Below, piece by piece: positions 3,277 to 64,000 of a stretch of DNA of 64,000 bases (positions are counted from its first letter, which is position 1; every line of letters starts with the position of its first letter). The stretch is from an uncultured Candidatus Saccharibacteria bacterium (lineage in GTDB: Bacteria > Patescibacteriota > UBA1384 > CAILIB01): NCBI GenBank assembly GCA_964593885.1, contig CAZQKK010000001.1:425929-489928 (forward strand), written 5' to 3'. The translations under genes were made by a program, and so were the position numbers. The notes under the pieces were generated by a model, which saw only the letters and a program-made list of their open reading frames with translations, did no database searches and was not told the DNA's origin.

Positions 3277-4308
3277 ATGCACGTCACTCGCGGGCTTGCC
3301 ACGGTTCTCGCTTTCACGCTCACCGTCGGCATCCCATCAGCTGGTTTCGCCACTTCTCCTCAACGTTACTCCACCACCTTTGCTGCCGTTGAGAGGCTTT
3401 CTCCTCCAGTAGTGCTCCCAGGATCTCCAGCCAGTACTGAAGATTACAGCGGGAGCTTTTTTGAAACCACGCTTGAGGGTATGCTCTCACGCTTAGGTGT
3501 TGTGTTGGCTCCAGAAGATAGGGTGGCAGTCTTTCCAGATCCTGCCCTGGGCATTGGAAGTCAGATTAGAATTGAGCGAGCACCAACAGTTACCATTGTG
3601 GATGCCGGCACCAGTTACCAGGTGCGAACCTGGGCAACATCGGTTGATCAGCTAGCAACTGAGAGGCGACTTGAACTGGCACCAAAGGATATCGTGAAGC
3701 CAGCTCTCAATGAGAGTATTACCAACGGCACCACCGTTACGGTAACCAGGGTTGCTGAGGTGGAAATTACCAAAAAGGAACCAATCATTTTTTCAGTTTC
3801 AAAGAAGAATACCGTAGACCTTGAGAAAGGTGAGAGTCAGGTTACCACCAAAGGGGTGAGTGGTGAGAAAGAGGTGACCTACCTGGTGAAGCGGGTGAAT
3901 GGGAAAGAGGTTTCACGAAAAGTAATTGCCACCGTGGTGACGAGGCCTGCTGTTACAGAGCAAGTACTGGTTGGAATTGGCCCAAAGCTTACCAAGGAAG
4001 GTCCCCACAAAGATCTCATCAATGCTGCTGCAAAGAAGTACCTCATTAATGGTACGGCGCTGCACTGTCTGATGATTGCAGAGTCGGGCGGGAGACCACA
4101 GAGTGCGTCATCTAATGGGCTGTATAAAGGTCTCTTCCAGTACACCGATGGCTTCTGGGCAAGCGCCAGTGCCGCCGCCGGCTACAAGGGTGCGAGTATC
4201 ACCAACACTGAGGCGCAGATTTTTGCTACTGCGAAAGCAATCTCAAGTAATAGCACTGCCTGGGTAAAGGGAAAGTGGCCACCATGGTCACAATGTTCTA
4301 ATCTTTAG
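3277..4308 (+). CDS. exported G5-domain protein with C-terminal Rpf-like (lysozyme-like transglycosylase) domain, RpfB/YabE-like
   Basis: signal-anchor MHVTRGLATVLAFTLTVGIPSAGFA; central G5-like repeat region (VTVTRVAEVEITKKEP...GEKEVTYLVKRVNGKEV); C-terminal IAESGGRPQSASSNGLYKGLFQYTDGFWAS resembles the Rpf motif CESGGNW..GLQF..TW; alternative start at 3247. Confidence 0.65.
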   Translation: MHVTRGLATVLAFTLTVGIPSAGFATSPQRYSTTFAAVERLSPPVVLPGSPASTEDYSGSFFETTLEGMLSRLGVVLAPEDRVAVFPDPALGIGSQIRIERAPTVTIVDAGTSYQVRTWATSVDQLATERRLELAPKDIVKPALNESITNGTTVTVTRVAEVEITKKEPIIFSVSKKNTVDLEKGESQVTTKGVSGEKEVTYLVKRVNGKEVSRKVIATVVTRPAVTEQVLVGIGPKLTKEGPHKDLINAAAKKYLINGTALHCLMIAESGGRPQSASSNGLYKGLFQYTDGFWASASAAAGYKGASITNTEAQIFATAKAISSNSTAWVKGKWPPWSQCSNL

Positions 4309-4317
4309 AAAAAATTG

Positions 4318-4347
4318 TTGACTTCCTCAAACACTTGGCAGTACCAT
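4318..4347 (+). promoter_or_regulatory. candidate sigma70-like promoter (TTGACT-18 nt-TACCAT) upstream of the HTH regulator gene
   Basis: TTGACT at 4318-4323, 18-nt spacer, TACCAT at 4342-4347, in the 40-nt gap after the preceding gene. Confidence 0.35.
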
Positions 4348-4373
4348 AGGTGTACCAAGCGGTAACGTATCCA

Positions 4374-4709
4374 ATGTTCGTGCGAGATATTCAAGGAATG
4401 GGGCTCACGGAAAAAGAGGCAAAGTTCTACCTCACCAGCTTACGGCTAGGGCCTTCAAGCATGCAGGTGCTTGCGCGAAAGGCCAAGATTGATAGGGGAA
4501 CCGCCTACCACGTTGCCATGACACTCGAGCAGAAGGGGCTCTTCGCCCAGCTTTCGCAGGGGAAGCGTCCGCTCTTTGGCGTTACCAACCCTCGCAGCCT
4601 CTTCAGTTTTGTAGAAACACGCCGGCAGGAAGTTGAGCAGCAGTTCAAGACAGCCGAGAGCATGATTGGAGACTTGGAAGAGCTCTACAGTACTGGTTTT
4701 TCCTCCTAA
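4374..4709 (+). CDS. small HTH transcriptional regulator (TrmB/MarR-like winged helix)
   Basis: ORF 4350 (GTG)..4709; ATG at 4374 fits the upstream promoter better; LTEKEAKFYLTSLRLGPSSMQVLARKAKIDRGTAYHVAMTLEQKGL resembles the N-terminal TrmB-type HTH. Confidence 0.5.
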   Translation: MFVRDIQGMGLTEKEAKFYLTSLRLGPSSMQVLARKAKIDRGTAYHVAMTLEQKGLFAQLSQGKRPLFGVTNPRSLFSFVETRRQEVEQQFKTAESMIGDLEELYSTGFSS

Positions 4710-4731
4710 AAATTGCTAAGGTGAGCCTCAC

Positions 4732-5586
4732 ATGAACGTGAGAATCTCACCTGATTTTGTAGTATCTCGTCTGCGCCAACTGGGCGTGAGAGCCCAGCAC
4801 TCACTGGGGCAAAACTTCCTCGTAGATGAGGAAGTACTCTTAGAGGTAGTGAGAGGGGGCGAAGTTACACCTACAGACACGGTAGTTGAGGTGGGTCCAG
4901 GGCTTGGGGTGCTCACTGAGGCGCTCCTCGCAACTGGAGCTACTGTCCATGCCCTCGAGTTTGACCCCTTGATGCTCAGCGTCTTAGAATCTGATTTTGC
5001 CGAGGCAATTGCTAGCGGAAAACTCATCCTCCACCAGGGAGATGCCGTGAAGCTGCTGCCATACCTCATCCAGACACTCCCAGAGTACAAGGTGGTGGCA
5101 AACGTGCCATACCAGATAACCACGCCACTCTTCCAGGTTCTCCTGCAAGATGCCGGGGCACATCGCCCCAAGCTCCTTTCGCTCCTCGTGCAGCGCGAAC
5201 TTGCAGAGCGTCTCTGTGCGCGGGAGAAAACGGGTGAGCGAAGCTACCTCTCGGTGCTTGCCCAGTACTTCACCACACCTTATATTTTGAGGAAGGTTGC
5301 GCCTACCTCCTTTATGCCTGCTCCCAAAGTGGATTCAGCGGTTCTGAAGCTGGTGGCCAAACCAGTTCTTTCGCTCCCGGCTGGTGAAGAGGTGAAGTTC
5401 TTCAAGTTTGTGAAGGCCGCTTTCCAGGAGCGAAGGAAACAGCTCAAAAACGTCCTTGCTGGCATGAAGGCAATGCCAACGGCTGAAGTTGGCGAGTGGC
5501 TGGTGTCCCACAACCTCCCGGTAACGGTGAGATCACAGGAACTGAGCGAAACCGATTGGCTAAACCTCTACCATGACAAAATCTAG
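4732..5586 (+). CDS. rsmA: 16S rRNA (adenine1518/1519-N6)-dimethyltransferase RsmA/KsgA
   Basis: HSLGQNFLVD motif, SAM-binding VVEVGPGLGVLT, NVPYQITTPL motif. Confidence 0.9.
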   Translation: MNVRISPDFVVSRLRQLGVRAQHSLGQNFLVDEEVLLEVVRGGEVTPTDTVVEVGPGLGVLTEALLATGATVHALEFDPLMLSVLESDFAEAIASGKLILHQGDAVKLLPYLIQTLPEYKVVANVPYQITTPLFQVLLQDAGAHRPKLLSLLVQRELAERLCAREKTGERSYLSVLAQYFTTPYILRKVAPTSFMPAPKVDSAVLKLVAKPVLSLPAGEEVKFFKFVKAAFQERRKQLKNVLAGMKAMPTAEVGEWLVSHNLPVTVRSQELSETDWLNLYHDKI

Positions 5587-6307
5587 CGCCACCCTCTACC
5601 TGGTAGCAACGCCAGTTGGCAACCTTGAGGACATGACGTACCGAGCTGTGAGAGTGCTCTCTGAGGTCTCTGAGATTTTTGCCGAAGACACCAGGGTTTC
5701 TCGAGTGCTCTTGGAGAAGTACGGCATTACCACCCACCTTACTTCTTACCGGGAGGCTGCACCCCGTGGCATGGTTGAGCGAACCATAGCCGACGTACTC
5801 TCCCGCCTCAAGCAAGGCGAATCTGTTGCCTACATCAGCGACGCCGGGACACCTGCGGTCTCAGACCCGGGAAGCTACCTTGTGAAGCGGGTGGTTGAAG
5901 CGGGCTTTACTGTTTCACCTATTCCAGGCGCCAGTGCGTTACCGATGATCATCAGCGTTTCGGGCATGCCGGTGATGCAGCCACTCTTTGTTGGGTTTTT
6001 ACCGCGCAAGAAGGGCAAGCAAACCCTCCTCAAACGCTTGAAGGAAGCACTGGTGAGCGAAACCGCTGACGTGGTTATCTTCTACGAATCTCCTGAGCGA
6101 ATAACCTCGCTCCTTGAGTACCTCGGTGAGTGGGAGTTGCCCCTACAGCTCTGTGTTGGGCGCGAGCTCACCAAGAAGTTTGAAGACGTCTTCCATGGCA
6201 ACCTCGCAGAGATGCAGGAGGTGTTTGCTGATAAGGGGAAGCAGCGCGGTGAGTTTGTGGTACTCGTAGGTCTTGCGGGCAGAGAAGCCAAAGATTCGCT
6301 AGAATAG
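5573..6307 (+). CDS. rsmI: 16S rRNA (cytidine1402-2'-O)-methyltransferase RsmI (tetrapyrrole-methylase fold)
   Basis: LYLVATPVGNLEDMTYRAVRVL...AEDTR...ISDAGTP(A)VSDPG pattern typical of RsmI; overlaps rsmA by 14 nt. Confidence 0.85.
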   Translation: MTKSSATLYLVATPVGNLEDMTYRAVRVLSEVSEIFAEDTRVSRVLLEKYGITTHLTSYREAAPRGMVERTIADVLSRLKQGESVAYISDAGTPAVSDPGSYLVKRVVEAGFTVSPIPGASALPMIISVSGMPVMQPLFVGFLPRKKGKQTLLKRLKEALVSETADVVIFYESPERITSLLEYLGEWELPLQLCVGRELTKKFEDVFHGNLAEMQEVFADKGKQRGEFVVLVGLAGREAKDSLE

Positions 6308-6311
6308 CGGT

Positions 6312-7856
6312 ATGGATCAAAAGACCACCTACATCACCACCTCCATTCACTACCCAAATGCCCTCCCACACATGGGGCATGCGCTTGAGGTAGTCCAGGC
6401 TGACTTCCTTGCACGCTACCACCGGGAGTTTTCGCTCACCGATGTGAGGTTCCAAACCGGGGTAGATGAGCATGGCCTCAAGATGTACCGCGCAGCCGGA
6501 GCTGCCGGGAAAGAGGTTGCAACCTTCACTGAAGAGCAGCAGGCCAACTTTGTCTCGTTGTTTCAGGAGCTAGGAGTAGAGGCTGATAGGTTCATCAGAA
6601 CATCTGAGCCTGCCCACAAGGAAATGGCACAGGCGCTCTGGAAGGCCTGTGAAGCCAAAGGCGATATCTACATCAAAACCTACCGTGCCTGGTACGACGT
6701 GAAAGAGGAGGAGTTCCTCGCCTCAGCCGATGAGGTTACCGATCCTTCTGTCTTTGGGATTGAGGAGAGGTTCCTCGAGCTCATTGAAGAGGAGAACTAC
6801 TTCTTTGCCGCCTCAAAGTACACGTCACAGGTACGTGAGCTCTTGGCTAGTGATACCTACAAGATTGTTCCTGAAAACCGCAAGCTTGAAATCCTCAATT
6901 TCCTTGATCAAAAAGGGATGCAGGATGTCTCAATTTCGCGCCAGAAATCAAAGCTCCCATGGGGTATTGAGGTTCCCGGAGATGACACCCAGGTGATGTA
7001 CGTCTGGTTTGATGCGCTCACCAACTACCTCACCGGAGCCGCAAGCGTCGTGGATGGGGTAATTGTTCCTGATGCATTTTGGCCAGCAATGCTCCACTGT
7101 GTAGGGAAGGATATCTCGCGTTTCCACGCACTCCTGTGGCCAGCGATGCTCATGTCGGCTGGCATTTCGCTCCCACAAAACCTCCTCACCCACGGGTTTG
7201 TCCTGGGCGAAGGTGGAAGGAAGATGAGTAAGAGCCTGGGGAACGTGGTTGATCCCCGTGAGATGCTCCAACTCTACGGACAGAGTGCTGTCAGGTGGTA
7301 CCTCCTCAAAGAGATTCCAACCCTCGGGGATGGGGTGTTTACCCAGAATCGGATTGCCGAGGTGTATGCCTCAGACCTGGCAAATGACTACGGAAACCTG
7401 GTGAGCCGCGTGGTTACCATGGCGAAGAAGTACGCTGACGGAAAGGTTCCTTCTGCAGATCACGTTGCCGCTGGTAACGCTGAGCAAGCGGTGGTTGAAG
7501 AGAAGTGGCGAGACTACCATGCAGCAGTTGAAAAGTATGAGATCAATACCGCTCTTGAGCTTGCGCATAGCCTGGTGGTGTTTGCTAACAAACGGATTGA
7601 AGAGCTGAAACCTTGGGTGATGGCGAAAGAGGGAGATACCGAGAGGCTCCACGAGTTCCTCTACGAGCTCCTCGAGCTCATCAGGCACGTTACCCTCATG
7701 TACCTCCCAGCTATCCCAGAAACAGCTTCACGGGTGCTCTCGCTCATCTACAGTACCGTTGATGGCGGCGACCAGCCGTGGGTGTGGGGCCTCCTTCAAT
7801 CTGGAGCACAGCTTCCAGAAGAAACACCCATCCTCTTCCCAAGATTGCAGGCATGA
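6312..7856 (+). CDS. metG: methionyl-tRNA synthetase
   Basis: class I HIGH motif (PHMGHA) and KMSKS motif (RKMSKSLGNVVDP); anticodon-binding C-terminal region. Confidence 0.9.
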   Translation: MDQKTTYITTSIHYPNALPHMGHALEVVQADFLARYHREFSLTDVRFQTGVDEHGLKMYRAAGAAGKEVATFTEEQQANFVSLFQELGVEADRFIRTSEPAHKEMAQALWKACEAKGDIYIKTYRAWYDVKEEEFLASADEVTDPSVFGIEERFLELIEEENYFFAASKYTSQVRELLASDTYKIVPENRKLEILNFLDQKGMQDVSISRQKSKLPWGIEVPGDDTQVMYVWFDALTNYLTGAASVVDGVIVPDAFWPAMLHCVGKDISRFHALLWPAMLMSAGISLPQNLLTHGFVLGEGGRKMSKSLGNVVDPREMLQLYGQSAVRWYLLKEIPTLGDGVFTQNRIAEVYASDLANDYGNLVSRVVTMAKKYADGKVPSADHVAAGNAEQAVVEEKWRDYHAAVEKYEINTALELAHSLVVFANKRIEELKPWVMAKEGDTERLHEFLYELLELIRHVTLMYLPAIPETASRVLSLIYSTVDGGDQPWVWGLLQSGAQLPEETPILFPRLQA

Positions 7857-15376: not shown

Positions 15377-15889
15377 ATGCTTCGTACCGAATCTGACCAT
15401 ATTTCAGGAATTGGAGAACTAGAGCTAGTAGAGTACGGAGACTTTGAGTGTCCAGACTGCGGCGAAGCTTACCCACTGGTAAAGGAGTGGCAAAAGGAGC
15501 TTCAGGGAAAGCTTACCTTCGTGTTCCGCAACATGCCACTTGACCAGCTCTACCCAATTCACCCCAACGCAACCATGGCAGCACAAGCCGCTGAGGCAGC
15601 TGGTAAGCAGGGAAAGTTTTGGGAAATGCATGATCTCCTCTTTACCCACCAGGCAGATTTGGGTGAGGATTCGCTCATCGAACTTGCCAGCAGGCTAGGC
15701 CTAGACGAACAGCAGTTTACTGATGACCTGGATTCTCCAGAAGTTGCCGAGAAGGTACAGAGGAGTGTTGCAGACGGCCAGGCTAAAGGAGTAACTGCTA
15801 CACCTACATTCTTCATTAACGGTGAAAAGGTTGAGGAATCCAGGAACTACTCACAGCTCTTGGAACTCCTGAAGGGAAAAATCTCGTAA
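15377..15889 (+). CDS. DsbA-family thioredoxin-fold oxidoreductase (CPDC active site), apparently without a signal peptide
   Basis: CxxC motif GDFECPDCGEAY, DsbA-like C-terminal TPTFFINGEKV. Confidence 0.7.
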   Translation: MLRTESDHISGIGELELVEYGDFECPDCGEAYPLVKEWQKELQGKLTFVFRNMPLDQLYPIHPNATMAAQAAEAAGKQGKFWEMHDLLFTHQADLGEDSLIELASRLGLDEQQFTDDLDSPEVAEKVQRSVADGQAKGVTATPTFFINGEKVEESRNYSQLLELLKGKIS

Positions 15890-18872: not shown

Positions 18873-19793
18873 ATGCCAGCTCGTGCTACCCGTCAAGAAC
18901 CAGAGGCAACTACTACTTCAGACGCTGCGGCGTCTCCTTCGCAAGCATCCCCTGATGCTATTTCCGCGCCAAAGCGGATCATGAGCGCTGGGAAAACACG
19001 CCTGAAGAAGGCTATGAGTGCAGTAAGGCCCCCTGTAGCTGAGACCTCAGACCAGTCGCCAGAGGCTACGGCTCCTGCCGCAACAGATGCTGGAGCACCC
19101 CTATCGCGCCCAGTCCTCGTTGAATTTAGGGAGGTTTCAAAACACTACGGTGAACACGCTGCGCTCGATAACGTCTCCCTCAAACTCTACAAGGGAGAAT
19201 TCTTGAGTTTAGTGGGACCTTCTGGAGCCGGGAAGTCTACCCTCATTAAGTGCCTCACCCTCCAGGAACGTCCTGAGGAGGGGAGAATTATTGTTGCCGG
19301 GAGGGATATCACCCTGTTACGCAAGCGAGAGCTTCCATTCTACCGTCGTAAGGTTGGATTCATTTTCCAAGACTACAAGCTCTTGGCAAGTAAAACCGTC
19401 TACGAGAATGTGGCCTTCGCACTTGAGGTATCGGGTGTGGCAACCCGCGAGATTAGGGATAGGGTTCAGCTCATGCTCGAGACCGTAGGAATGACCCCTA
19501 AACGCGATAACTTCCCCCACGAGCTATCAGGTGGTGAGCAGCAGCGTGTGGCCATTGCCCGCGCCCTCGTCCACGATCCACGCATCCTCATTGCCGATGA
19601 GCCAACCGGTAACCTAGACCCGGTGAACACCTGGGAAATTATTGAGCTCCTCTACAAGATCAACCGATCAGGTACCATGGTCATCTTGGCTACCCATGAT
19701 CGTGAGATTGTAGATGCGCTCAAGAAACGGGTGGTAACCATCAGGGCAGGGCAGATTGTCGCCGATCAAGAGAAAGGAACCTACCTCGTATGA
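18873..19793 (+). CDS. ftsE: cell-division ABC ATPase FtsE with an approximately 85-aa low-complexity N-terminal extension
   Basis: Walker [13 protein letters not shown] signature [15 protein letters not shown], Walker [13 protein letters not shown]; immediately followed by ftsX. Confidence 0.85.
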
Positions 19794-20743
19794 TGTTTCC
19801 TACCTTCCTCAGAATCTTACTGTATGGGGTGTTTGGTTTCCGTCGCCATATCTGGCTTTCGGTTATTGCGGTGATCACCATGACCATGACGCTCATGACG
19901 GTTACTGTGTTTGCGATGACAGATGTTATCGCCGCCCAGCAGCAGAAAGAGCTTGAGAACAAGATTGACTACGTCATCTTTGTCAAAGACGAGGCAAGTG
20001 ATACGGATGTTAACCTCCTGATCACCCAGATTGAAGCGCAGCCAGAGGTGAAGGATGTTAGCCTCCTCAGCAAAGAAGACGCTAGGAAGCAGTTTGAGCA
20101 AACCCTAGGTACTCTCCCAGAGTTGCAGGGTCTCATCACAGAGGAGCGAAATCCACTCCCTCGCCAAGTGTCGGTAGGCTTCAACAATGTTGAGGGAATC
20201 ACGGAGTTCAACCAGTTCGTCTCTCAGGACAGGTTTAAGCAGATTATTTTCCTCACTAGCTACGAGGAAAACCAGGATATCATCAAGAACTACATTAGTA
20301 CGGCAAACCTGCTCAAGGTTATCGGTTTTGCTTTTACCTTCTTCTTCTTGCTCATTGCCTTCATGGTTATCTTCAATGTCATTAGGCTGGCTATTCACTC
20401 CAGGAGACAGGAAATCGAGGTAATGAGGTTGGTTGGGGCTAGTCCCGGCTTCATTAAAGGACCCTTCTTTGTGGAAGCTGTGCTCTACGCGTTGCTCAGT
20501 ACCGTTGCGGCCTCAAGTCTCACCTGGCTCACCCTTACTCAGCTCCAGCACCTCGTCCAGCAGAGCTACGGAACTGGTGGTAATACCCTCACAGCACTCT
20601 TTTGGCCCATTCTCACCACAAACGGCGATGGTTCCCTGAGCAGCATCCTAAGCTACCTCTTCGTACTCCAACTCCTCGTTGCGGTTATCCTGGGGATAAT
20701 CTGTAGCGGCGTGGCAGTGAGAAGGTACTTGAAAGAAGCCTAA
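19790..20743 (+). CDS. ftsX: cell-division permease-like protein FtsX
   Basis: N-terminal TM, periplasmic domain, then C-terminal 3-TM bundle; ATGA overlap with ftsE. Confidence 0.8.
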   Translation: MMFPTFLRILLYGVFGFRRHIWLSVIAVITMTMTLMTVTVFAMTDVIAAQQQKELENKIDYVIFVKDEASDTDVNLLITQIEAQPEVKDVSLLSKEDARKQFEQTLGTLPELQGLITEERNPLPRQVSVGFNNVEGITEFNQFVSQDRFKQIIFLTSYEENQDIIKNYISTANLLKVIGFAFTFFFLLIAFMVIFNVIRLAIHSRRQEIEVMRLVGASPGFIKGPFFVEAVLYALLSTVAASSLTWLTLTQLQHLVQQSYGTGGNTLTALFWPILTTNGDGSLSSILSYLFVLQLLVAVILGIICSGVAVRRYLKEA

Positions 20744-20768
20744 GTTAGACGTATACTCTCCCTACACT

Positions 20769-21968
20769 ATGCGTAACCGTTCCGCACTTTCGCGCACTGT
20801 CATCGCACTCTTCTCTCTCACCGTTCTTACTGTATCCGGAAGTACTACTTGGCTTATCCCGGTTCGTCCACAGGTAGTAAGAGCGGCTTCAGTAAAAGAC
20901 CTCGAGGCAAAGAAAAAGGCTGCCGCAGAGGCTGCTAAGAAGGCTGCCGCTGAGGCTGCAAAGAAGAAAGAGCAAGCAGCAGCCGCTGCTGCAAAGGTAA
21001 AGCAGGTCACAGGGCAAATCTCTGAGATTGAAGGGGAAATTGTTGAGACGCAGTCAACTATTGTTACCACCCAGACAGAGGTAGAAAAGAAAACTCAGCA
21101 GCTTGCTCTCCTAGAGTCTGACCTGAGGCGTATCCAAGATCAGCAGGATGCCTTGGTTAGGCAGCTCTACATCACCATGGTGAGTCTCCCAGACGAGCTA
21201 GCATTTTTCTCAAACGAGAGTGTCAGCGATAAAGAGAAGAAGCGGGCACAGTTTATTGCTCTCAAGAAGTCTGTTGCCCTCATGTACACCCAGACAACCG
21301 CAGCAAAAATGGCGGTAGAGGAAACGCGTACTGGTTTGGCACGTAAGGCAGACCAACTTGAACAGTTCAAGATGCAGCAGGGCGAGCAGAAGAAGGGACT
21401 TGCTAACTACAAGAGTGCGCAGTCAGATCTCCAGAAAGATGCTGTTGCTGCTGCGGCAAAACTTGAGGCTCAGGCAGCTCAGGCACAGAAGGATGTGGCA
21501 AAAATTGAGCAACAGATTCAGGTAGAGATTAGCAAGGCTATTAAGAGTGGTAACTTTACCGGCGGGGGACCAGGGGTTGGAACGCGTGTAACACGGGGCA
21601 CCTACATTGGGGCAATGGGTTGCACCGGATACTGTACTGGCCCTCACGCTCACCTAGAGTTACGTATTAACAATATTCCAGTAAACCCAACAGGCTACTT
21701 GAGTAACGGCACCTTGAGTTACCCTGTAGCAAACTACACACTTACCCAAGGCTTTGGGTACACCTCGTACGCAGCATCGGGTGCATACGGTGGCAATATC
21801 CACACAGGACTCGATCTCGCAGCCAAGTATGGTACACCAATCTACGCTCCAGCAGATGGTACGGTGATCCTCAATTCGTTCTACCGTGGCTATGGCTATG
21901 CCTGGGCTGCTAAACTAGATTCAGACCCAAACAAAGTGGTCCTCATTGGTCACATGGTGGCCAGGTAA
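20769..21968 (+). CDS. M23 (LytM) peptidase with N-terminal coiled-coil, EnvC/PcsB-like
   Basis: signal peptide, long coiled-coil (KKAAAEAAKK repeats, QQ-rich), C-terminal M23 motifs HTGLDLAA...GTPIYAPADGTV...GHM; follows ftsEX. Confidence 0.8.
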   Translation: MRNRSALSRTVIALFSLTVLTVSGSTTWLIPVRPQVVRAASVKDLEAKKKAAAEAAKKAAAEAAKKKEQAAAAAAKVKQVTGQISEIEGEIVETQSTIVTTQTEVEKKTQQLALLESDLRRIQDQQDALVRQLYITMVSLPDELAFFSNESVSDKEKKRAQFIALKKSVALMYTQTTAAKMAVEETRTGLARKADQLEQFKMQQGEQKKGLANYKSAQSDLQKDAVAAAAKLEAQAAQAQKDVAKIEQQIQVEISKAIKSGNFTGGGPGVGTRVTRGTYIGAMGCTGYCTGPHAHLELRINNIPVNPTGYLSNGTLSYPVANYTLTQGFGYTSYAASGAYGGNIHTGLDLAAKYGTPIYAPADGTVILNSFYRGYGYAWAAKLDSDPNKVVLIGHMVAR

Positions 21969-21989
21969 CAGCTAGCTAAGGAGTTCCCC

Positions 21990-23231
21990 ATGCAGATAGA
22001 TAAAGGTAGGCGTTTTGTAGTGCCAGCGGCTCTCCTCGTTGTCGTGCTTCTCCTCGTTTCTGGTGCCGGCATAACAGGTTACCAGTTTGGACTCCAGCGA
22101 GCAGGGGGATCGGTTACCGTTTCTGGCGATAGGCCAAACCTAGGTACTTTCTGGGAAGCTTGGAACATCCTCGACAAAAAGTTTTACGGCGATACCTCTA
22201 CCGATGCGCGTGTTGACGGAGCCATTTCAGGCATGGTTGCCGGTCTTGGCGATCCTTACACTACCTACCTCGCTCCAAAGCAGGATAAGCTCTTTAGGTC
22301 TGGCCTTGAGGGAAGCTTTGGTGGTATTGGAGCTGAGCTTGAGGTGATCAATGAGCAGCTCACCATTGTCAGCCCGCTCCAAGGAACTCCATCTGAGAAG
22401 AGTGGATTAAAGGCGGGTGATATCATATTGAAAATTGATGGCGAAGAAACAAAGAACCTCAGCTTCCTGGATGCAGTAGACAAGATTAGGGGCGAAAAGG
22501 GTACCGATGTAACTCTCACCATTGGCCGTTCTGGAAAGGATGAGCCTTTTGACGTGAAAGTTACCAGGGATACCATTACGGTAAAGAGCGTGAGCAGCGA
22601 GAACATCGGGCCTAATGGGGAAGTTGCCTACATAAAGCTCAACCAGTTTGGCGAAGATACCTCAAAGCTCTTCAGAGACGCCCTTGCCACAGCTGTTGCT
22701 GATGGTAAGAAAGGGGTTATCGTAGATCTGAGAAACAACCCTGGAGGATTTCTCACCACGGCAATTGATGCAATTGGCTTTGTCCTTCCAGAGACCATTG
22801 CTAGTGATAATGAGTTCCTGAAAGCAAGGACTGCGGTGAGAGAGACGTACAAGAACAAGATAGAAGATAAGCAGGTTGCTACCAACTCACCCGTTGCAGA
22901 CACCATGCCAATGGCGGTGCTTGTGAACGGGGGATCTGCCTCAGCCTCTGAGATTTTTTCTGGAGCGATGAAGGACTACGGCCGAGCAAAACTGGTAGGA
23001 CAGAAAACCTTTGGTAAGGGGAGCGTTCAAGATTTAGTTGAGCTCAAGAATGGTGGTAGTATAAAGGTAACTATTGCACACTGGCTCACCCCACTAGGTA
23101 CAGAGATCAACAAAAAGGGAGTAGTTCCTGACGTTGAGGTCTCACTCAAAGAGGGAGAAAAGCTAAGCTCAAGTGATAGTCAGGTCATTGCAGCTCTCGC
23201 GCAGCTTGGAAGTTCGCTCGCCAAAAAGTAA
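21990..23231 (+). CDS. ctpA: carboxyl-terminal processing protease (S41, PDZ domain)
   Basis: PDZ GLKAGDIILKIDG; S41 motifs VDLRNNPGG and NGGSASASEIF...KTFGKGSVQ. Confidence 0.85.
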   Translation: MQIDKGRRFVVPAALLVVVLLLVSGAGITGYQFGLQRAGGSVTVSGDRPNLGTFWEAWNILDKKFYGDTSTDARVDGAISGMVAGLGDPYTTYLAPKQDKLFRSGLEGSFGGIGAELEVINEQLTIVSPLQGTPSEKSGLKAGDIILKIDGEETKNLSFLDAVDKIRGEKGTDVTLTIGRSGKDEPFDVKVTRDTITVKSVSSENIGPNGEVAYIKLNQFGEDTSKLFRDALATAVADGKKGVIVDLRNNPGGFLTTAIDAIGFVLPETIASDNEFLKARTAVRETYKNKIEDKQVATNSPVADTMPMAVLVNGGSASASEIFSGAMKDYGRAKLVGQKTFGKGSVQDLVELKNGGSIKVTIAHWLTPLGTEINKKGVVPDVEVSLKEGEKLSSSDSQVIAALAQLGSSLAKK

Positions 23232-23249
23232 CAAGCTCTCTCAACACCT

Positions 23250-25370
23250 ATGGCTGAAGACTCGCTCCCACCAGTTCCACCACCAGTACCTGGCGTTGTA
23301 CCACCAGCTAGCCCACAGCCTCCTGTAGCTATTCCTGTGCCACCACCAGTTACTCCAGGGCCTGCAAGTAGCCCAGCTCCAGCGAGTGACGTTAGTGATG
23401 AAGATGTGCCACGCTCAAACCTTAGCCCTTTCAAGTTGCTGGCTAAGAAAGACCAAGGATCCGCAGCCCCACAGGCAAACGTGGTTCCACCACCAACACC
23501 AGTAGCTCCTACTATTCCCCAGCCTAGTCAGCCAGCTGGAGGAATTATGGTTGCAACTCCTAGCCGTGAAGAGCTCCTCAAGCAGGCCGCTGAAGCACCT
23601 GAAGCAAGCTTTATCCTGCCTCCACCTGAGATTATCGCTACCCAGAATAGCCAGGCAACACCTCTAGTGAGTCAGGTTCCACGTCAACCGGGAGCTGCCA
23701 TGCAGCCACTCTTTGAAAAGGATGTGCCCGCACCTAGTAAGCCAATACCAGTAAGGCAAGGTGCTCTTGGAACACCTGCGGCTCCACTTCGCGCTCAGCA
23801 GGTTCCCTTTACACCTCCAAAACAGATGGGTGCGCCAATACCACTCAATGGCGGGGTAAAGCCAAAAATCCCGGGGAGGGTCACGCCTGCCGTGCAAAAT
23901 TCGCTCAACGTAGCTGCTAAAACAGGTTTTGGTGCTGCTCCAAAAAAGCGTAACTTCACTGGTACGCTCATTATTGGGTTGCTCATCTTCATTATTGTCG
24001 GGAGTGGCGCCGCCTACGTAATGGCTAAGAATGGCTCACGCGTTCCCGTGCTCTTTAAGGTGGTTAGTGGCTTAGAGGCTAGTGGCCTTGCAAGCAATAC
24101 GCAGGCACTCTCCTACGTCCAGGCACGTACCCGATACCAGGTGCAGGGTGAGGTTGAGTTGGTGCGATCAGATCTTGTAGATGCAACAGGGAAACCTACC
24201 CTCACCAATGCCGGAGATGCGGCGGCAGGGAGTGTCTACCGCCTGAAGAGCCAAATGGGCCAAGGTGAGTTTAGCGAGAAGGGTGCCAACCACGTAGCAC
24301 TGCTTGCCCTTACGGTAAACCAGAACGATCCTATTCAGCTTGCCCTTAAAGAGAAGCCAGCCAGTACTGACACCGATAACTGGTCTATGTACTTCTCAAG
24401 CAACGATAAGCCACAGCTCTCCTCAATCAAGAGTAGTTTGGTGGCAAAATCGCTCCTCCTTCCAATTCTCCAACCTATCCCACTTGAGAAGCTGCTGACA
24501 CTCCCAACAGGGGAGCTTGCCTACCAGAAGCAGGTGGGAACAAAGGCTGGTACCGTGCTATCTGCCCACAAGTACACCGTTGCTAGCGACAAGCTTAAGG
24601 ACTACTTCCCGGCCAGTGCGGTACTTGAGAACTTTACCCTCACTTCGCGATACACCTGGGCTCAGGGTACAACCCCAGCTGCTCAGACCAGCACCGCAGA
24701 CCTAGAGGGAAAGGTGACGTACCTCCAGAAAACCTATAACTACACCGCTAAGTGGCGCTACGGAAGTTGGGATCAAGCCATAGATGCAAGTGGCGATACC
24801 AGTGGAGCAATAGCAAAGGTAACTGGGATCGAAGTTCCTACACCCACAAGCATGGCAAGTGCTACGGCGCTCATGGGGATTCTCAACCTTACTTCGCTCC
24901 CTAACACGCTTACGGAAGCCGAGGGTGGAAGTGTCTCCACTACCACCGGTGGTGGAAATTCAGGTAGCGCTATCACCCCAACTGGTGAAGGCATCACGGT
25001 GGCGGGTTCAAAGATTACCGTTGCACCCCCAGTTCCCACAAAGCCAGCTTCTACTGAGGCAAAGGCACGTGATACTCAGCGCATCAAGGACCTCGCCGAT
25101 ATCAAGCAGGCGCTCACCGCCTACAAAACCGCAAAGGGAAGCTACCCGGTGAGTATCACGCTCCTCCAGACTGCTGAAGGTGGGGTACTCCTCTCAGAAC
25201 TGGTTCCAACTTACCTGACAAAGCTCCCAATAGACCCCACAAAGACAACCTACTGGTACGAGTACACTTCTACGGGAAGTAGCTTTACCCTGAGGGCGGT
25301 TGCGGAAGATCCAGAAAGTGCTACGGTGAAAAAAGGAAGCATTTACCCATACTTTGAAGTAACTAACTAG
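23250..25370 (+). CDS. large membrane-anchored surface protein: Pro-rich N-terminus, one TM helix, extracellular domain, C-terminal pseudopilin(GspG)-like domain
   Basis: 706 aa; PPVPPPVPG repeats; TM LIIGLLIFIIVGSGAAYVMA; C-terminus ARDTQRIKDLADIKQALTAYKTAKGSYP resembles the type II secretion/type IV pilin core region but without an N-terminal prepilin motif. Confidence 0.55.
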   Translation: MAEDSLPPVPPPVPGVVPPASPQPPVAIPVPPPVTPGPASSPAPASDVSDEDVPRSNLSPFKLLAKKDQGSAAPQANVVPPPTPVAPTIPQPSQPAGGIMVATPSREELLKQAAEAPEASFILPPPEIIATQNSQATPLVSQVPRQPGAAMQPLFEKDVPAPSKPIPVRQGALGTPAAPLRAQQVPFTPPKQMGAPIPLNGGVKPKIPGRVTPAVQNSLNVAAKTGFGAAPKKRNFTGTLIIGLLIFIIVGSGAAYVMAKNGSRVPVLFKVVSGLEASGLASNTQALSYVQARTRYQVQGEVELVRSDLVDATGKPTLTNAGDAAAGSVYRLKSQMGQGEFSEKGANHVALLALTVNQNDPIQLALKEKPASTDTDNWSMYFSSNDKPQLSSIKSSLVAKSLLLPILQPIPLEKLLTLPTGELAYQKQVGTKAGTVLSAHKYTVASDKLKDYFPASAVLENFTLTSRYTWAQGTTPAAQTSTADLEGKVTYLQKTYNYTAKWRYGSWDQAIDASGDTSGAIAKVTGIEVPTPTSMASATALMGILNLTSLPNTLTEAEGGSVSTTTGGGNSGSAITPTGEGITVAGSKITVAPPVPTKPASTEAKARDTQRIKDLADIKQALTAYKTAKGSYPVSITLLQTAEGGVLLSELVPTYLTKLPIDPTKTTYWYEYTSTGSSFTLRAVAEDPESATVKKGSIYPYFEVTN

Positions 25371-59878: not shown

Positions 59879-61042
59879 CTAGTTACCCATCTGATTGAGT
59901 AGTGGGCAGAGCACCTGGTTGATGTAGTCCTGAGCCCAGTAGTTGTCCTTGGGCATGCCACCTGAGTTGAATACCACGGATATCAGCTGTCCGTTTGCAC
60001 GGTACATGATGGCTGCATTGCAACCTTCAAGGCTGCCACCGTGCTGGAGGGTGTAGCCACCGTTTGACTCAACAGTCACGCTGAACCCAAGTCCAGTGTA
60101 GTTGCGAGACCCTCTGGCGTATGCCGGAGGAATCACCACTTGAGCCTGGAGTTCAGCACTTATCAGCTTTGGCAGCGCCTGCTGGAATTGGATGAGTGCG
60201 CGAGCACTCATCACCCATCCACCAGATGAGTCCATCTCCCCAAGGGTATAACACCCATAGGGGAAAGGTACTCGCTTTAGGTTGTCGCCCGGGTAGAGTG
60301 ACATGCCCACCCTGCCTGGCAGATCCCAGTAGCGGGTTTCTCCTTCACGAAGGTTCTTGCTGTGGCCAACGTAGGCCTCAGTAGCGGAGATCCCAGCCGG
60401 AGCCAGAATTGCCGCCCGGACGTAGTCCTCGTAGCCCCTGCCGGAGACTTTCTCGATGATCTTTCCAAGGATACGAAATCCAATGTTGGAGTACGAGAAG
60501 CGGGTTCCAGGTGTTGAGACGAGGGATTCTTTCTCAAAGGCAAGTAGTACTTGGATATCCTTTGGGATCGGAAGTGGGGTGCCATACCGTTTTGAGGTTG
60601 TGACCTGTTCGTTGAGGAACGTGTCACTTCCCCAACCACCAGTGTGCTGGAGTAGGTGCCTCACCGTAACGGTGCGCATCTCTGCTTGCCTTGGCTTGAT
60701 TGGGTGCTCGCGGTCCTTGTTGAGGATATCGAGGACGAAATCGTCAAGATTCAGCTTGCCATCTCGCACGAGGCAGAGAACGGCGGTGGTGGTATACGTC
60801 TTGGAAACGCTGGCCACCCGGTTTGGAGTGGTGGCGAGGAAGGGATCTCCCTTCTCGTTTCGTACCCCAAATGGGACGGTGACGGTATCAGAACCGTTGG
60901 TAACGATGAGCGCTCCGCCATGTGCGCCCTTACTCTGGGCGTACTGGCGGAAGGATGATTCGATGGCCGATGTCTCAGCCGGGGAGAACCCCGTGTGTGG
61001 GAGACCGACCATTGCAATGAACGCAAGGGCAGATGTAATCAT
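59879..61042 (-). CDS. secreted serine hydrolase of the beta-lactamase/class C PBP family
   Basis: signal peptide; SxxK motif (VASVSKTYTT), YxN-like and HGG-like (LQHGGSLEG) regions. Confidence 0.8.
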   Translation of the reverse strand: MITSALAFIAMVGLPHTGFSPAETSAIESSFRQYAQSKGAHGGALIVTNGSDTVTVPFGVRNEKGDPFLATTPNRVASVSKTYTTTAVLCLVRDGKLNLDDFVLDILNKDREHPIKPRQAEMRTVTVRHLLQHTGGWGSDTFLNEQVTTSKRYGTPLPIPKDIQVLLAFEKESLVSTPGTRFSYSNIGFRILGKIIEKVSGRGYEDYVRAAILAPAGISATEAYVGHSKNLREGETRYWDLPGRVGMSLYPGDNLKRVPFPYGCYTLGEMDSSGGWVMSARALIQFQQALPKLISAELQAQVVIPPAYARGSRNYTGLGFSVTVESNGGYTLQHGGSLEGCNAAIMYRANGQLISVVFNSGGMPKDNYWAQDYINQVLCPLLNQMGN

Positions 61043-61155
61043 AAGAACCTCAGATTGTCAGGCCTCTTTCGCGGGGTGCGGAAAAGGGAGCAAAATCTGC
61101 GGTGATAGTAGGGTATTTGCCCCCAAAAAGCAAGCAGGAGTACACTAAGTACATG

Positions 61156-61668
61156 AAAGCTACAGGAACGTACAGTACCGAGAGTTTGCGTAAGGTGGTT
61201 ACCGTTACCATCTGCGTATTTGCCATGACAACAATGTTTGCTCACACCTTCCCAACACTCATTGGTTTTTCTTCCTTGAGAAAGCTTACCGATGCAAGCC
61301 TGCAAACCCTGGGAATTCACGAAAAGTGGAGGATGTTTACCTCAAAAGACACGTCAGCAGTACCACTCAAAATGGAGCTCATCTACACCAGTGGAAAGAC
61401 ACAAACGGTGGTGCTACGAGCAGAAAGGGTGAGCTTTTCGAGGAGTGCTGAGAATCGTTTCAGTGAAACGGTCCTCTGGAATACGTTCTCGCCTCTTACG
61501 GGGTCTTTCCTTGAGGCAAGCTGCAAACGGTACACGAGTACTAATGATCGGCTGGTAAGTGCATCGCTCAACCAGGCAACCATCATGCTTCCCTCATCTC
61601 TTACCGCAAGTGAAAGCAAGATGCCTCTGCAGTACAAGCAGGTTAGGAACCTCCAATGTCCCAAATAG
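61156..61668 (+). CDS. hypothetical exported protein, candidate SdpA-like partner of the downstream HTTM protein
   Basis: ATG at 61156 within ORF 61102..61668; N-terminal hydrophobic segment VVTVTICVFAMTTMFAHT; overlaps the HTTM-1 gene start by 13 nt; SdpA-like call is by genomic context only. Confidence 0.45.
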   Translation, partial: KATGTYSTESLRKVVTVTICVFAMTTMFAHTFPTLIGFSSLRKLTDASLQTLGIHEKWRMFTSKDTSAVPLKMELIYTSGKTQTVVLRAERVSFSRSAENRFSETVLWNTFSPLTGSFLEASCKRYTSTNDRLVSASLNQATIMLPSSLTASESKMPLQYKQVRNLQCPK

Positions 61669-62576
61669 TCGAAAACATTCGTGGTTCACTGGCAAAGCTG
61701 CTCAACGAGGCATTCTTTTCGCCTTTTAAGGAAAACCAACTTAGGCTTTTCAGGGGAGCGGTTGGAGTTGCCCTGATTATTACCTCACTCTCTTGGGTCC
61801 AATCTTTCAGATGGTTTTTCGCCCCAGACGGGTACGTTCCGCTTTCGCTGGCGCCAAGCCTTGGGAAGTACACGGTAAGCTGGCTCCACCTTTTCAACTA
61901 CGAGGCGCTCTCGGGTTTGCCTTTCCTCTATGCTGGCTACCTCCTCATGCTAGTTGCTGCAGGTTTCCTCGTTATTGGGAAGTACGAGAAATATGCAGCT
62001 CCTGTAGCCTACATTCTCTTACTTAGCTTCCTGGGACGAAACCCAGCATTGAGCTATGGCGGCACCGATGTGCTCCAGTTCTTGCTCCTAGCGGTAGTTC
62101 TCCTCAGCCTCCCCGGCAAGAAGCAGGCTGAAAAGTGGCCGATTGTCCTGGTTCAGTTCCAGTTTGCCGTTCTCTACCTATCGGCAGCAATCAGTAAGAT
62201 GCAGGTTCCCGAGTGGTTTAACGGCACCAAGATGTTCTTTGGGATGTCAGATCCAACCTTTTCCTACATCAACCCAAACTTTCTCCTAAGCGTACCGGCA
62301 CTCCTTGCCTTCATCACGTGGTACGGGTTCATGTCAGAGATTGGCTTCACCTTCCTCATTTGGTCAAAGGGTACGAGGAGGTTTGCACTGGCTATGGTAG
62401 TACTCCTGCACGTTGGGATTGCGCTGACCATGAACGTACACCTATTCAGTGAGGTGATGCTCCTAGGCTTTACCGCACTCTTAACTGAAAGTGAATCAAC
62501 GTGGCTACTTGAGCGACTTCGCGCAGCGAAAACCGGTGTAGTTTCTGTTGTACGAAGGTCCAAGCGCAAGGTCTAG
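61656..62576 (+). CDS. HTTM-domain (vitamin-K-dependent gamma-carboxylase-like / SdpB-like) polytopic membrane protein, copy 1
   Basis: 306 aa, about 8 TM helices; conserved C-terminal block FTFLIWSKGTRRFALAMVVLLHVGIALTMNVHLFSEVML; paralogous to the partial ORF at 63521..64000. Confidence 0.75.
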   Translation: MSQIVENIRGSLAKLLNEAFFSPFKENQLRLFRGAVGVALIITSLSWVQSFRWFFAPDGYVPLSLAPSLGKYTVSWLHLFNYEALSGLPFLYAGYLLMLVAAGFLVIGKYEKYAAPVAYILLLSFLGRNPALSYGGTDVLQFLLLAVVLLSLPGKKQAEKWPIVLVQFQFAVLYLSAAISKMQVPEWFNGTKMFFGMSDPTFSYINPNFLLSVPALLAFITWYGFMSEIGFTFLIWSKGTRRFALAMVVLLHVGIALTMNVHLFSEVMLLGFTALLTESESTWLLERLRAAKTGVVSVVRRSKRKV

Positions 62577-63524
62577 CGAGTAGATTCCTGAGTTTTCGTT
62601 GTTTGCCCAGGCGCCACCCCGCGTAACCGCCTTGAATGGTGAGGTTGGGGTAATGAGATTGTTGTATTCCCAAGACCAACCTGGGTTGAGTGATATTTTG
62701 CCAATGCCGTTTACTGAGGTAAGGGTGCTATCAGGGAGCTGGCTACCATCCATCTTGCCATAGTCTTTCACCTCGTTGTATTCAATCCAGCGGGTCTTTG
62801 TGATGGGGAAAGTTGCCTTGATGCCGTTACCGGTAAGGCCGTCAGAGTCAATTTCAAACGTTTCTCCAGTACCGGTTTTCTCTTCAAAAATGTAGGGATC
62901 TGACATCCACTCCCAGAGGTTTCCAGTGAGGTCCCAGAGTACCTCGCCGTTACTGAGGACGGTAGTGCGTGAGAGGCTGCGGCTTGGTTCACCCGGAACG
63001 TAGGGGGTAACCCAGTTTCCGGCGGTGCCTGTGTAGCTGAGGTTGCTCCTCAGTGAGCATGAGGCGTTTTCTGGGGTATCAAGACCAGAAGAGAGGTTGC
63101 ACTTGGCAAGAGATGGTGAGACATCAGGAACAGCCTGTACAAACTTTTGCCCAGCTGTGTTGCCATTGGTGAGCTGGGGGCCGGGTTCGCTGCTGAGGTC
63201 ATTGATGGGAGTTTTCAAGATGTCAGCCGCAATGGTCATCCACTCACTGCTACTGAGGAGGTGGTAGCCAGTCCCAAGGTCTGCGCAGGCTTGTTTCGCC
63301 CCAGGTGAGGTTTGGAAATTCCAGGGGAAATCGCCCAGTTTGCTGACGGGGAGACCTGAAGGACTCTTTTGAGCTTCAGTTCGCATAACGCAGAAGCCTC
63401 CTCCTGGCACCTCAATGTAGCCCTCTGGGCATCCGGTAGTATCTGGTTGAGGCCTCGTTGCCAACCACCCAGCCGTCACAGCAACTAGGATGAGGAAGAG
63501 GAGGTTGCTTTGCTTGCCAGTCAT
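62505..63524 (-). CDS. membrane-anchored formylglycine-generating-enzyme (FGE/SUMF1) family protein
   Basis: N-terminal signal-anchor; FGE-sulfatase domain hallmarks GNLWEWMSDPY, RGGAWANNENSG, GFRCAK; ATG overlaps the stop of the upstream HTTM gene (ATGA). Confidence 0.8.
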   Translation of the reverse strand: MTGKQSNLLFLILVAVTAGWLATRPQPDTTGCPEGYIEVPGGGFCVMRTEAQKSPSGLPVSKLGDFPWNFQTSPGAKQACADLGTGYHLLSSSEWMTIAADILKTPINDLSSEPGPQLTNGNTAGQKFVQAVPDVSPSLAKCNLSSGLDTPENASCSLRSNLSYTGTAGNWVTPYVPGEPSRSLSRTTVLSNGEVLWDLTGNLWEWMSDPYIFEEKTGTGETFEIDSDGLTGNGIKATFPITKTRWIEYNEVKDYGKMDGSQLPDSTLTSVNGIGKISLNPGWSWEYNNLITPTSPFKAVTRGGAWANNENSGIYSLDLALGPSYNRNYTGFRCAKSLK

Positions 63525-64000
63525 GCTCGGCGCAGTTTCCGCTGGGCTTTAGCGCCTTTGTAAACTCGCTTGAGGAATGCAGCTGCAGCTACGATGTCAT
63601 CCTCCAAGAGGAAGATGGTAGCAATGGAGAGCATGGTCTCAGCAAAGTAGCTGACGTTGAGGGTAATGAGGCTACTACCGTGGATGATAAGTAAGCCGAA
63701 TAGGGCAAACCTTCGGGTTTCCTTGAACCAAACGAAGAATGGGAAAGATACCTCTAGGAGGAGCGATCCCCAGGTCATGAGCCCCATAATGAGCGGGAAG
63801 GCGGCAAGCCAGGTGAAGTTCATGGTGGCGTACTCGAAGTTGAGGACTTTCCCAGCTTCAGTTCCTTGGACAAACCAGGCATCTGCTCGCACCTTGGCAA
63901 AGCCTGCAAAGAGGTAAACGAAGGCAAAGTTGAGCTGAATGAGCCTTGCCGACCATCCGGCAACCATGCCTGCTTTGTCGGGTTGGGGGAGCATTAAGTA
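63521..64000 (-). CDS. HTTM-domain membrane protein, copy 2 (3' part only; N-terminus beyond window end)
   Basis: FPFFVWFKETRRFALFGLLIIHGSSLITLNVSYFAETML aligns with HTTM copy 1; reading frame stays open upstream of the listed Met to the window edge. Confidence 0.7.
   Translation of the reverse strand, partial: YLMLPQPDKAGMVAGWSARLIQLNFAFVYLFAGFAKVRADAWFVQGTEAGKVLNFEYATMNFTWLAAFPLIMGLMTWGSLLLEVSFPFFVWFKETRRFALFGLLIIHGSSLITLNVSYFAETMLSIATIFLLEDDIVAAAAFLKRVYKGAKAQRKLRRA

Follow-up and report, generated by a model that had tools for sequence, protein, structure and literature searches.

We analysed a 64,000-nucleotide (nt) stretch of the genome of an uncultured Candidatus Saccharibacteria bacterium (contig CAZQKK010000001.1, positions 425,929 to 489,928 of the forward strand; this whole stretch is called the window below), and in particular the genes at its right-hand end, where the gene for a membrane protein with an HTTM domain overlaps the gene for a protein with a C-type-lectin fold. 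This junction is part of a larger module, which contains a small partner protein (partner B), the HTTM protein (HTTM-B) and the lectin-fold protein, as well as a second partner/HTTM pair (partner A and HTTM-A). Table 1 lists the features in the window. HTTM-B runs off the window end; exact look-ups of two window proteins yielded no record of either, and the gene content beyond that point was therefore read from the orthologous locus L091, where HTTM-B has its full length of 330 amino acids (aa); full-length orthologues are also present in loci L002, L004 and L006.

Table 1. Features of the HTTM/lectin-fold module and its surroundings in the window (strand "." means both strands)
Feature	Position	Strand	Basis
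Lectin-fold protein, 339 aa, membrane-anchored, C-type-lectin fold of FGE subtype, predicted non-catalytic, family of diversity-generating retroelement (DGR) variable proteins	62505..63524	-	
N-terminal hydrophobic segment of the lectin-fold protein, aa 5-24, signal-anchor or signal peptide	63453..63512	-	sole hydrophobic segment in hydropathy scan
DGR variable-region equivalent, aa 300-339, RGGAWANNENSGIYS...GFRCAKSLK, no Cys pair	62508..62627	-	most conserved part
ATGA stop/start overlap of HTTM-B and lectin-fold gene	63521..63524	-	sequence read, conserved junctions, fusions
HTTM-B, VKGC/SdpB-like polytopic membrane protein, 3' part (159 codons), runs off window end	63521..64000	-	Pfam HTTM 4e-11, 43.4 bits
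Invariant Lys codon in the FAKVRADAW motif of HTTM-B, predicted equivalent of VKGC Lys218	63893..63895	-	paralogue and VKGC profile alignment
HTTM-A, second HTTM paralogue, 306 aa	61656..62576	+	Pfam HTTM 8.2e-10, 39.1 bits
Partner A, 171-aa single-pass protein, unnamed family, overlaps HTTM-A start by 13 nt	61153..61668	+	homologous to gene before every module HTTM
Convergent 3' overlap of lectin-fold gene and HTTM-A, 72 nt	62505..62576	.	open reading frame coordinates
Beta-lactamase-family serine hydrolase, possible accessory gene (weak evidence)	59879..61042	-	Pfam PF00144 1.2e-45

Direct reading of the minus strand gives ATGA at 63524-63521, in which ATG (63524-63522) starts the 339-aa open reading frame (ORF) of the lectin-fold protein, ending at 62505, and TGA (63523-63521) stops the HTTM-B ORF that continues past the window end, so the stop/start overlap described in an earlier reading of the bare sequence (the original prediction) lies where it was placed. 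The 4-nt ATGA is the commonest overlap type among co-directional bacterial genes and is unremarkable alone; we count this one as above chance because the overlap is kept across loci, and because the two proteins are fused elsewhere (below). Five further assemblies of related bacteria, probably Patescibacteria as are the nearest relatives, have overlaps of 4-25 nt: L091 and L092 (79% DNA identity to the window) likewise have the ATGA junction, and the overlap is 8 nt in L006, 22 nt in L002 and 25 nt in L004. In each of these the corresponding ATG is the sole start codon within the first 30 codons. A public gene call for the window protein (P0001, 293 aa) begins at the internal Met47 and so lacks both the membrane anchor and the CPEGY...FCVM strand, which is conserved (codons 1-46, window 63386-63524). 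Since the family-wide conserved residues C32, P40, F44 and C45 all precede Met47, and since a 339-aa version (P0027) is present in the same database cluster as P0001, the 339-aa reading is the correct one. The same architecture was found in at least six independent assemblies (NCBI, JGI, ENA, Logan), and this repetition of the junction rules out a frameshift or assembly artefact, a concern that the original prediction had itself raised.

Close homologues of the lectin-fold protein are rare (only ~7 in 5.8 billion clustered proteins). In the readable unfused loci, one strand carries the genes for a 169-aa protein, a ~180-aa partner, a ~330-aa HTTM protein and the lectin-fold protein, and the opposite strand, converging on these, carries the genes for a ~305-aa HTTM protein and a ~175-aa partner, followed by beta-lactamase-family, ClpP, trigger factor, PGK and TIM genes; because this whole neighbourhood is common to them, we count the unfused loci as one lineage. 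The convergent overlap of the lectin-fold gene with HTTM-A is also kept, at 63-87 nt, in L002, L004, L006 and L091. The GFRCA motif, in the most conserved part of the lectin-fold protein, is encoded opposite the basic tail of HTTM-A, with no terminator-like site between the two genes; a promoter and terminator scan of 60900-64000 gave nothing beyond the level of shuffled sequence, and an Rfam scan found only a tRNA-Leu.

Outside this lineage the two proteins are joined. A scan of species-representative genomes, followed by a hidden Markov model search of all fetched loci, found a Bdellovibrionota metagenome-assembled genome (L012) in which HTTM and lectin fold form one 633-aa ORF (P0021) with a partner gene ahead of it, and the C-terminal half of this protein is 37% identical to the window lectin-fold protein over aa 31-339 (E 1e-51). 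There are four such HTTM::lectin-fold fusions in four lineages (P0021 in L012, one in L090, P0023 and P0024; together P0021-P0024, 617-644 aa and 39-51% identical to one another, the three others being 39-43% identical to the L012 fusion). In L090 the whole module is a tandem operon whose genes overlap by 4-17 nt, in the order partner, HTTM, partner, HTTM::lectin fold. A metagenome scan with the HTTM-B alignment returned a single locus, of the same lineage as L012. A neighbour-joining tree built from 97 family members groups all 11 HTTM-linked lectin-fold domains into a single clade, with support from 167 of 200 bootstraps, and the highest scores of HTTM-B and partner B are those against the HTTM and partner proteins of the fusion loci; from these two observations, partner B, HTTM-B and the lectin-fold domain have been inherited as a unit, in two phyla. 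The overlaps in related assemblies and the fused proteins elsewhere thus bear out the earlier claim that HTTM-B and the gene downstream of it are a coupled pair.

Both HTTM proteins of the window, which are ~27% identical to each other, score above the Pfam gathering cut-off of 27.7 bits for HTTM (Table 1). On the NCBIfam SdpB model (TIGR04033) HTTM-A scores 52.6 bits, below the cut-off of 178.4, and the HTTM-B fragment has no match. The HTTM profile aligns to human VKGC at 3e-5, and this alignment places the Lys of the motif A.F.K.....W on residue 187 of the construct, which is residue 218 of the full-length protein. K218 is the catalytic base of VKGC. The same Lys is invariant in seven sequences drawn from both HTTM paralogue groups and in eight HTTM-B and fusion sequences, and by these alignments the HTTM proteins keep the equivalent of the VKGC active-site base. 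They resemble VKGC, then, in the HTTM domain, in the Lys aligned with K218 and in the Trp that follows it and, if our view of the topology (below) is right, also in having an extracytoplasmic domain C-terminal to HTTM in the fusions; they differ from it in that the extracytoplasmic domain has a lectin fold and is not the VKGC lumenal domain, and in having a separate single-pass partner besides. Bacterial HTTM proteins are widespread and almost none has a known substrate; the roles that have been characterised or proposed for HTTM proteins, which are found in linaridin clusters as well (PMC9927463), are all peptide or protein modification.

A small gene lies ahead of each HTTM gene of the module, overlapping or abutting it, in the window and in L002, L004, L006, L091, L012 and L090, and 172-aa and 163-aa genes precede the fusions P0024 and P0023, respectively; the original prediction had overlooked this larger module. 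The encoded partner proteins (the public call P0033 is identical to the 171-aa partner A) have an N-terminal transmembrane (TM) segment, a domain of ~130-150 aa, an LG(I/F)..W.M motif and two invariant Cys, and make up a small family, with just 28 representative clusters in a set of 1.84 billion proteins. Pfam and NCBIfam scans with 6, 9 and 29 members gave no match, SdpA and DUF5819 included, and none of the 29 matched Pfam DUF5819 at E<=0.1. The AlphaFold2 model of the partner is poor (pLDDT 63), and its best Foldseek match in the PDB is a non-significant one to vasohibin (E 0.07).

Two precedents are relevant to this arrangement. A 2026 preprint (bioRxiv 10.64898/2026.08.19.745780) predicts that an HTTM protein is completed by a single-pass DUF5819 protein to give a GGCX-like complex from which one side of the substrate clamp is missing, and it describes MloH as a bacterial VKGC-like carboxylase. 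Like the DUF5819-HTTM pairs, the module has a single-pass protein with a predicted extracytoplasmic domain, of similar build (N-terminal TM segment, ~130-150-aa domain) and encoded directly upstream of HTTM; unlike them, its partner has no match to Pfam DUF5819, and it adds a lectin-fold subunit and a second pair, whereas in the DUF5819 example there is a fused DCC1-like domain. In Bacillus subtilis, SdpA and SdpB are needed for processing of the secreted SdpC (PMC6818787). The module shares with SdpA/SdpB/SdpC the order of small protein, HTTM protein and exported protein, and HTTM-A has the sub-threshold SdpB match noted above, but no homology to SdpA or SdpC was detected in the module, it is without sdpRI immunity genes, and its third protein differs in size and fold.

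Is the lectin-fold protein an enzyme of the FGE type, as its Pfam match might suggest? Its match to PF03781 (FGE-sulfatase) is marginal, at 24.7 bits against a cut-off of 23.3 with a best stretch of 17 residues, and 16 of 19 family members match this model at E<=0.01. The family alignment has the framework motifs FCVMKYEA, GYHL...EWMTIA, LSNGEVIWD..GN.WEW and RGG.W...GFRCA, and with them the protein belongs to the FGE-sulfatase, C-type-lectin-like fold. The Cu(I)-binding catalytic Cys pair of FGE (human C336/C341), which in the well-studied human and bacterial enzymes sits between the motifs GGS(Y/F) and GFRC, should then fall between RGG.W and GFRC; there is no Cys in that segment in any of the 19 aligned family members or in any of 12 HTTM-linked sequences (fusions included), and the window protein has none between R302 and C334. 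A phmmer search of PDB sequences with the single lectin-fold sequence found no FGE and gave chance matches to ribosomal protein S12 only. The family profile, searched against the PDB, favours TaqVP (2e-7) over SUMF2 (0.004), EgtB (0.006) and the true FGEs (0.12-0.15), and in a Foldseek search with the AlphaFold2 model of the protein (pLDDT 71, pTM 0.76) TaqVP was again the best match (3e-6). TaqVP, TvpA and Mtd have the FGE subtype of the C-type-lectin fold, many members of which are non-catalytic, including SUMF2, PorK and the DGR variable proteins (PMC6328139). No sulfatase was found among the 44 window ORFs scanned with Pfam, in agreement with the earlier remark that this is no sulfatase-maturation context. 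On the alignments, the lectin-fold protein is a non-catalytic C-type-lectin-fold domain and no sulfatase-modifying enzyme, and the original prediction of an FGE/SUMF1-type enzyme that oxidises Cys fails on the very comparison it had recommended, that of the active-site Cys pair. The protein is like FGE (SUMF1) and pFGE (SUMF2) in its fold subtype, its C-terminal RGG..W / GFRCA framework and its marginal PF03781 match; it differs from FGE in being without both catalytic Cu-binding Cys (as is SUMF2), without a sulfatase partner, and in having a membrane anchor and long insertions that FGE has not. The practical lesson is that "FGE-sulfatase" annotations are not safely read as enzymes.

The relatives of the lectin-fold protein, at 23-37% identity in species-representative genomes, are in Patescibacteria, DPANN archaea and Bdellovibrionota/Oligoflexia. 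A template-repeat/variable-repeat pair (TR/VR) is present in at least 16 of the 79 related loci, the two best matches among them: a ~115-nt repeat follows downstream of the gene's 3' end and, as is characteristic of DGRs, nearly every mismatch falls on an adenine of the downstream copy. These active-looking DGR targets are L011, L013, L015, L016, L017, L019, L021, L025, L028, L031, L043, L052, L066, L073, L086 and L087; their template repeats lie 0.4-2.8 kb downstream and have 9-19 mismatches, nearly all at template adenines. L031 has a second target gene ~10 kb upstream of the template repeat, and the relative at L009 9657-10378 has GIY-YIG and bAvd genes directly downstream.

None of this equipment accompanies the module. 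No copy of the 3' 496 nt of the lectin-fold gene occurs in the 64-kb window, and the same scan, positive in the at least 16 loci above, found no template repeat for L002-L006, L012 and L090; neither a reverse transcriptase nor Avd is encoded by the 44 window ORFs, and the gene tables for L002, L006 and L091 list neither of them up to a distance of 10 kb. Conservation in the protein peaks in the variable-region equivalent (aa 300-339), where the column mean across eight unfused orthologues is 0.89, compared with 0.43-0.80 in its other parts. Because there is no Cys pair, no repeat and no reverse transcriptase, and because the variable-region equivalent is the most conserved part, we regard the protein as a frozen, non-catalytic member of the DGR-receptor family with a conserved binding face; by its sequence it is a non-diversified offshoot of the DGR variable proteins, a descent that the original prediction had missed. 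Its C-type-lectin fold of FGE subtype is closest to known proteins of that kind (TaqVP 5VF4, TvpA 2Y3C, Mtd; TaqVP is the variable protein of a Thermus DGR), which provide its best profile and structure match and have the motifs GN.WEW and RGG.W...GFRC in common with it, and the closest homologues outside the HTTM-linked clade are bona fide DGR targets in Patescibacteria. It differs from them in being tethered or fused to an HTTM protein, and our literature search found no such DGR target reported. The HTTM-linked clade also has an acidic insertion, FEEKTGTGETFEIDSDGLTGNG, after GN.WEW (aa 201-222, window 62859-62924), which is absent from most of the DGR-linked relatives. Three fusions out of four retain its D.DG.TG, and this loop may serve to bind metal or to mediate interactions.

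The topology of the lectin-fold protein can be estimated from the fusions as follows: the hydrophobic segment at aa 5-24, which is a helix in the AlphaFold2 model, corresponds in the fusions to an extra TM segment that comes after a K/R-rich loop behind the HTTM domain and ahead of the lectin fold. The window HTTM-B ends in the strongly basic tail KGAKAQRKLRRA, which suggests that its C-terminus is cytoplasmic. This layout is as expected if the C-terminus of the HTTM part is cytoplasmic and the chain then crosses the membrane once, so that the lectin fold lies outside the cell, and it agrees with the proposal in the original prediction that the N-terminal segment places the domain outside the cell beside the HTTM protein. 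Six Cys are invariant in the HTTM-linked lectin-fold clade. A DsbA-like thioredoxin (CPDC motif, PF13462/PF01323) is encoded at window 15377-15889 (+), 47 kb from this module of extracytoplasmic proteins with invariant Cys.

What might such a module do? Our favoured reading, which we think has about an even chance of being right, is that it is a split VKGC-like membrane enzyme with a domesticated receptor domain as its fixed extracytoplasmic recognition subunit. Partner and HTTM protein would together form the split enzyme, analogous to the predicted DUF5819-HTTM pairs; the lectin-fold domain, itself non-catalytic, would serve on the outer side of the membrane as a fixed recognition subunit, holding a protein, peptide or surface ligand beside the HTTM active site for post-translational modification or processing; and partner A with HTTM-A, convergent in the window and tandem in L090, would be a paralogous catalytic unit of the same machine. 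The term "split VKGC" rests on architecture and analogy, because no sequence link of the partner to DUF5819 or SdpA could be detected. Several points weigh against this reading. The partner family has no detectable sequence link to either of those families, its model is poor and it has no significant structural match; the confidence of the lectin-fold model is itself only moderate (pLDDT 71); the sample amounts to no more than 8 unfused and 4 fused sequences, with all unfused loci from one lineage; to our knowledge Patescibacteria are generally without quinone biosynthesis, which is awkward for vitamin-K-type chemistry; and the order partner, HTTM, third gene fits the third protein as a substrate equally well.

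The last point leads to the main rival, which we consider unlikely, namely that the HTTM/partner enzyme has the lectin-fold protein as its substrate and not as a subunit; in the position of sdpC, this protein would be matured, modified (for example at the acidic loop FEEKTGTGETFEIDSDGLTG) or processed after export. The order of small partner, HTTM protein and exported third protein is that of sdpABC (PMC6818787), HTTM-A has its 52.6 bits on the SdpB subfamily model, and the lectin-fold protein is the only exported non-HTTM protein of the module apart from a 169-aa protein confined to Patescibacteria. However, that SdpB score is far under its cut-off and no SdpA-like or SdpC-like protein was detected in the module; the fold is a ligand-binding scaffold; and fusion to the enzyme domain, seen in four lineages, is more to be expected of subunits than of products that are set free, although a fused domain could still be modified in cis.

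It is also conceivable, and in our view distinctly unlikely, that the lectin-fold protein works on its own as a surface adhesin: once a DGR receptor, it would have lost its retroelement and would stand next to the HTTM genes with no mechanistic link to them. Its relatives are indeed DGR receptors of Patescibacteria, DPANN archaea and Bdellovibrionota, the Patescibacterial module adjoins genes for a 1379-aa surface protein and a pilin, and 78 of 79 related loci have no HTTM gene within 10 kb. Simple adjacency is hard to reconcile with a reading-frame overlap kept in every unfused locus, with the existence of fusion proteins, with the grouping of the HTTM-linked domains in a single clade, and with the co-inheritance of partner B and HTTM-B with the domain across phyla.

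The mechanism of the original prediction, an FGE/SUMF1-type oxidase that recognises or oxidises a Cys in a secreted protein which the HTTM enzyme would likewise modify, appears very improbable: the PF03781 score just above cut-off and the 16 matching family members are what it has in its favour, and set against these are the positions of the Cu-binding pair, which lack Cys in every member and already contradict the oxidase part, the family-profile E values of only 0.12-0.15 for FGE, the lack of a sulfatase in the window, and the example of SUMF2, PorK and the DGR variable proteins, in which this fold is non-catalytic. The chance that the gene pair is an assembly or annotation artefact, with unrelated genes joined or split by a frameshift, is practically nil, and we count this idea as already refuted, since the internal-Met start of the 293-aa call P0001 is outweighed by at least six independent assemblies and by the conserved residues before Met47.

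If the favoured reading of a split VKGC-like enzyme with a receptor-derived subunit is right, the scaffold of the DGR variable proteins can lose its diversification and be put to new use as a fixed subunit in a membrane enzyme. The only known role of the domain is specific ligand binding, and it is fused or coupled to an enzyme, so finding the ligand of the lectin fold would probably also reveal the HTTM substrate. Both components are of known kinds and their combination is undescribed in the literature searched: we found no text that combines HTTM with FGE-sulfatase, and the public records of these proteins all read "hypothetical protein". What the coupled pair suggests is a machine for cell-surface modification that has not been described before, rather than sulfatase maturation. 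Patescibacteria and Bdellovibrionota live attached to, or prey on, other cells, and the module, which looks like a transferred one, ties these two lineages of cell-attached lifestyle together. As a long shot, they might have in common a horizontally transferred surface machine, in which a domesticated DGR-type receptor domain directs a VKGC-like HTTM enzyme to a specific extracellular target (the host or prey envelope, or a surface protein of the cell itself), which the enzyme then modifies, for example by carboxylation. If true, it would be without precedent on two counts, as a targeted HTTM modification system that works outside the cytoplasm and as an enzyme that has taken its specificity subunit from the DGR receptor scaffold.

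Several neighbouring genes deserve mention. The PF00144 gene is in the same position in L002, L006 and L091, and one lies inside the L012 module (4189-5436, -); as a candidate module member it was set aside as a weak lead or coincidence, the window and L012 proteins being only 27% identical over 149 aa and L090 having none. A 168-169-aa protein is encoded just upstream of partner B in all Patescibacterial loci (L091 2840-3349; L002 7858-8367; L004 7893-8399); it has a signal-peptide-like N-terminus and no Pfam match, is not found in the fusion loci, and is a candidate substrate or extra subunit. In L012, three otherwise different secreted proteins (825-2522, 4189-5436 and 5629-7191, all -) have identical first 17 residues, MSNYQTQILALAAIASS; one is of the beta-lactamase family and another has a weak transglutaminase-core match (E 0.005). 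A pilin-like gene (N_methyl) and the gene for a 1379-aa protein with a long Ser/Asn/Gln tract (SNQ units) adjoin the module in L002 (2799-7758), which suggests a neighbourhood of cell-surface genes. The window itself also encodes, at 18873-25370 (+), an FtsE/FtsX/M23/S41 cluster and, after it, a 706-aa protein whose C-terminus is pilin-like (T2SSG).

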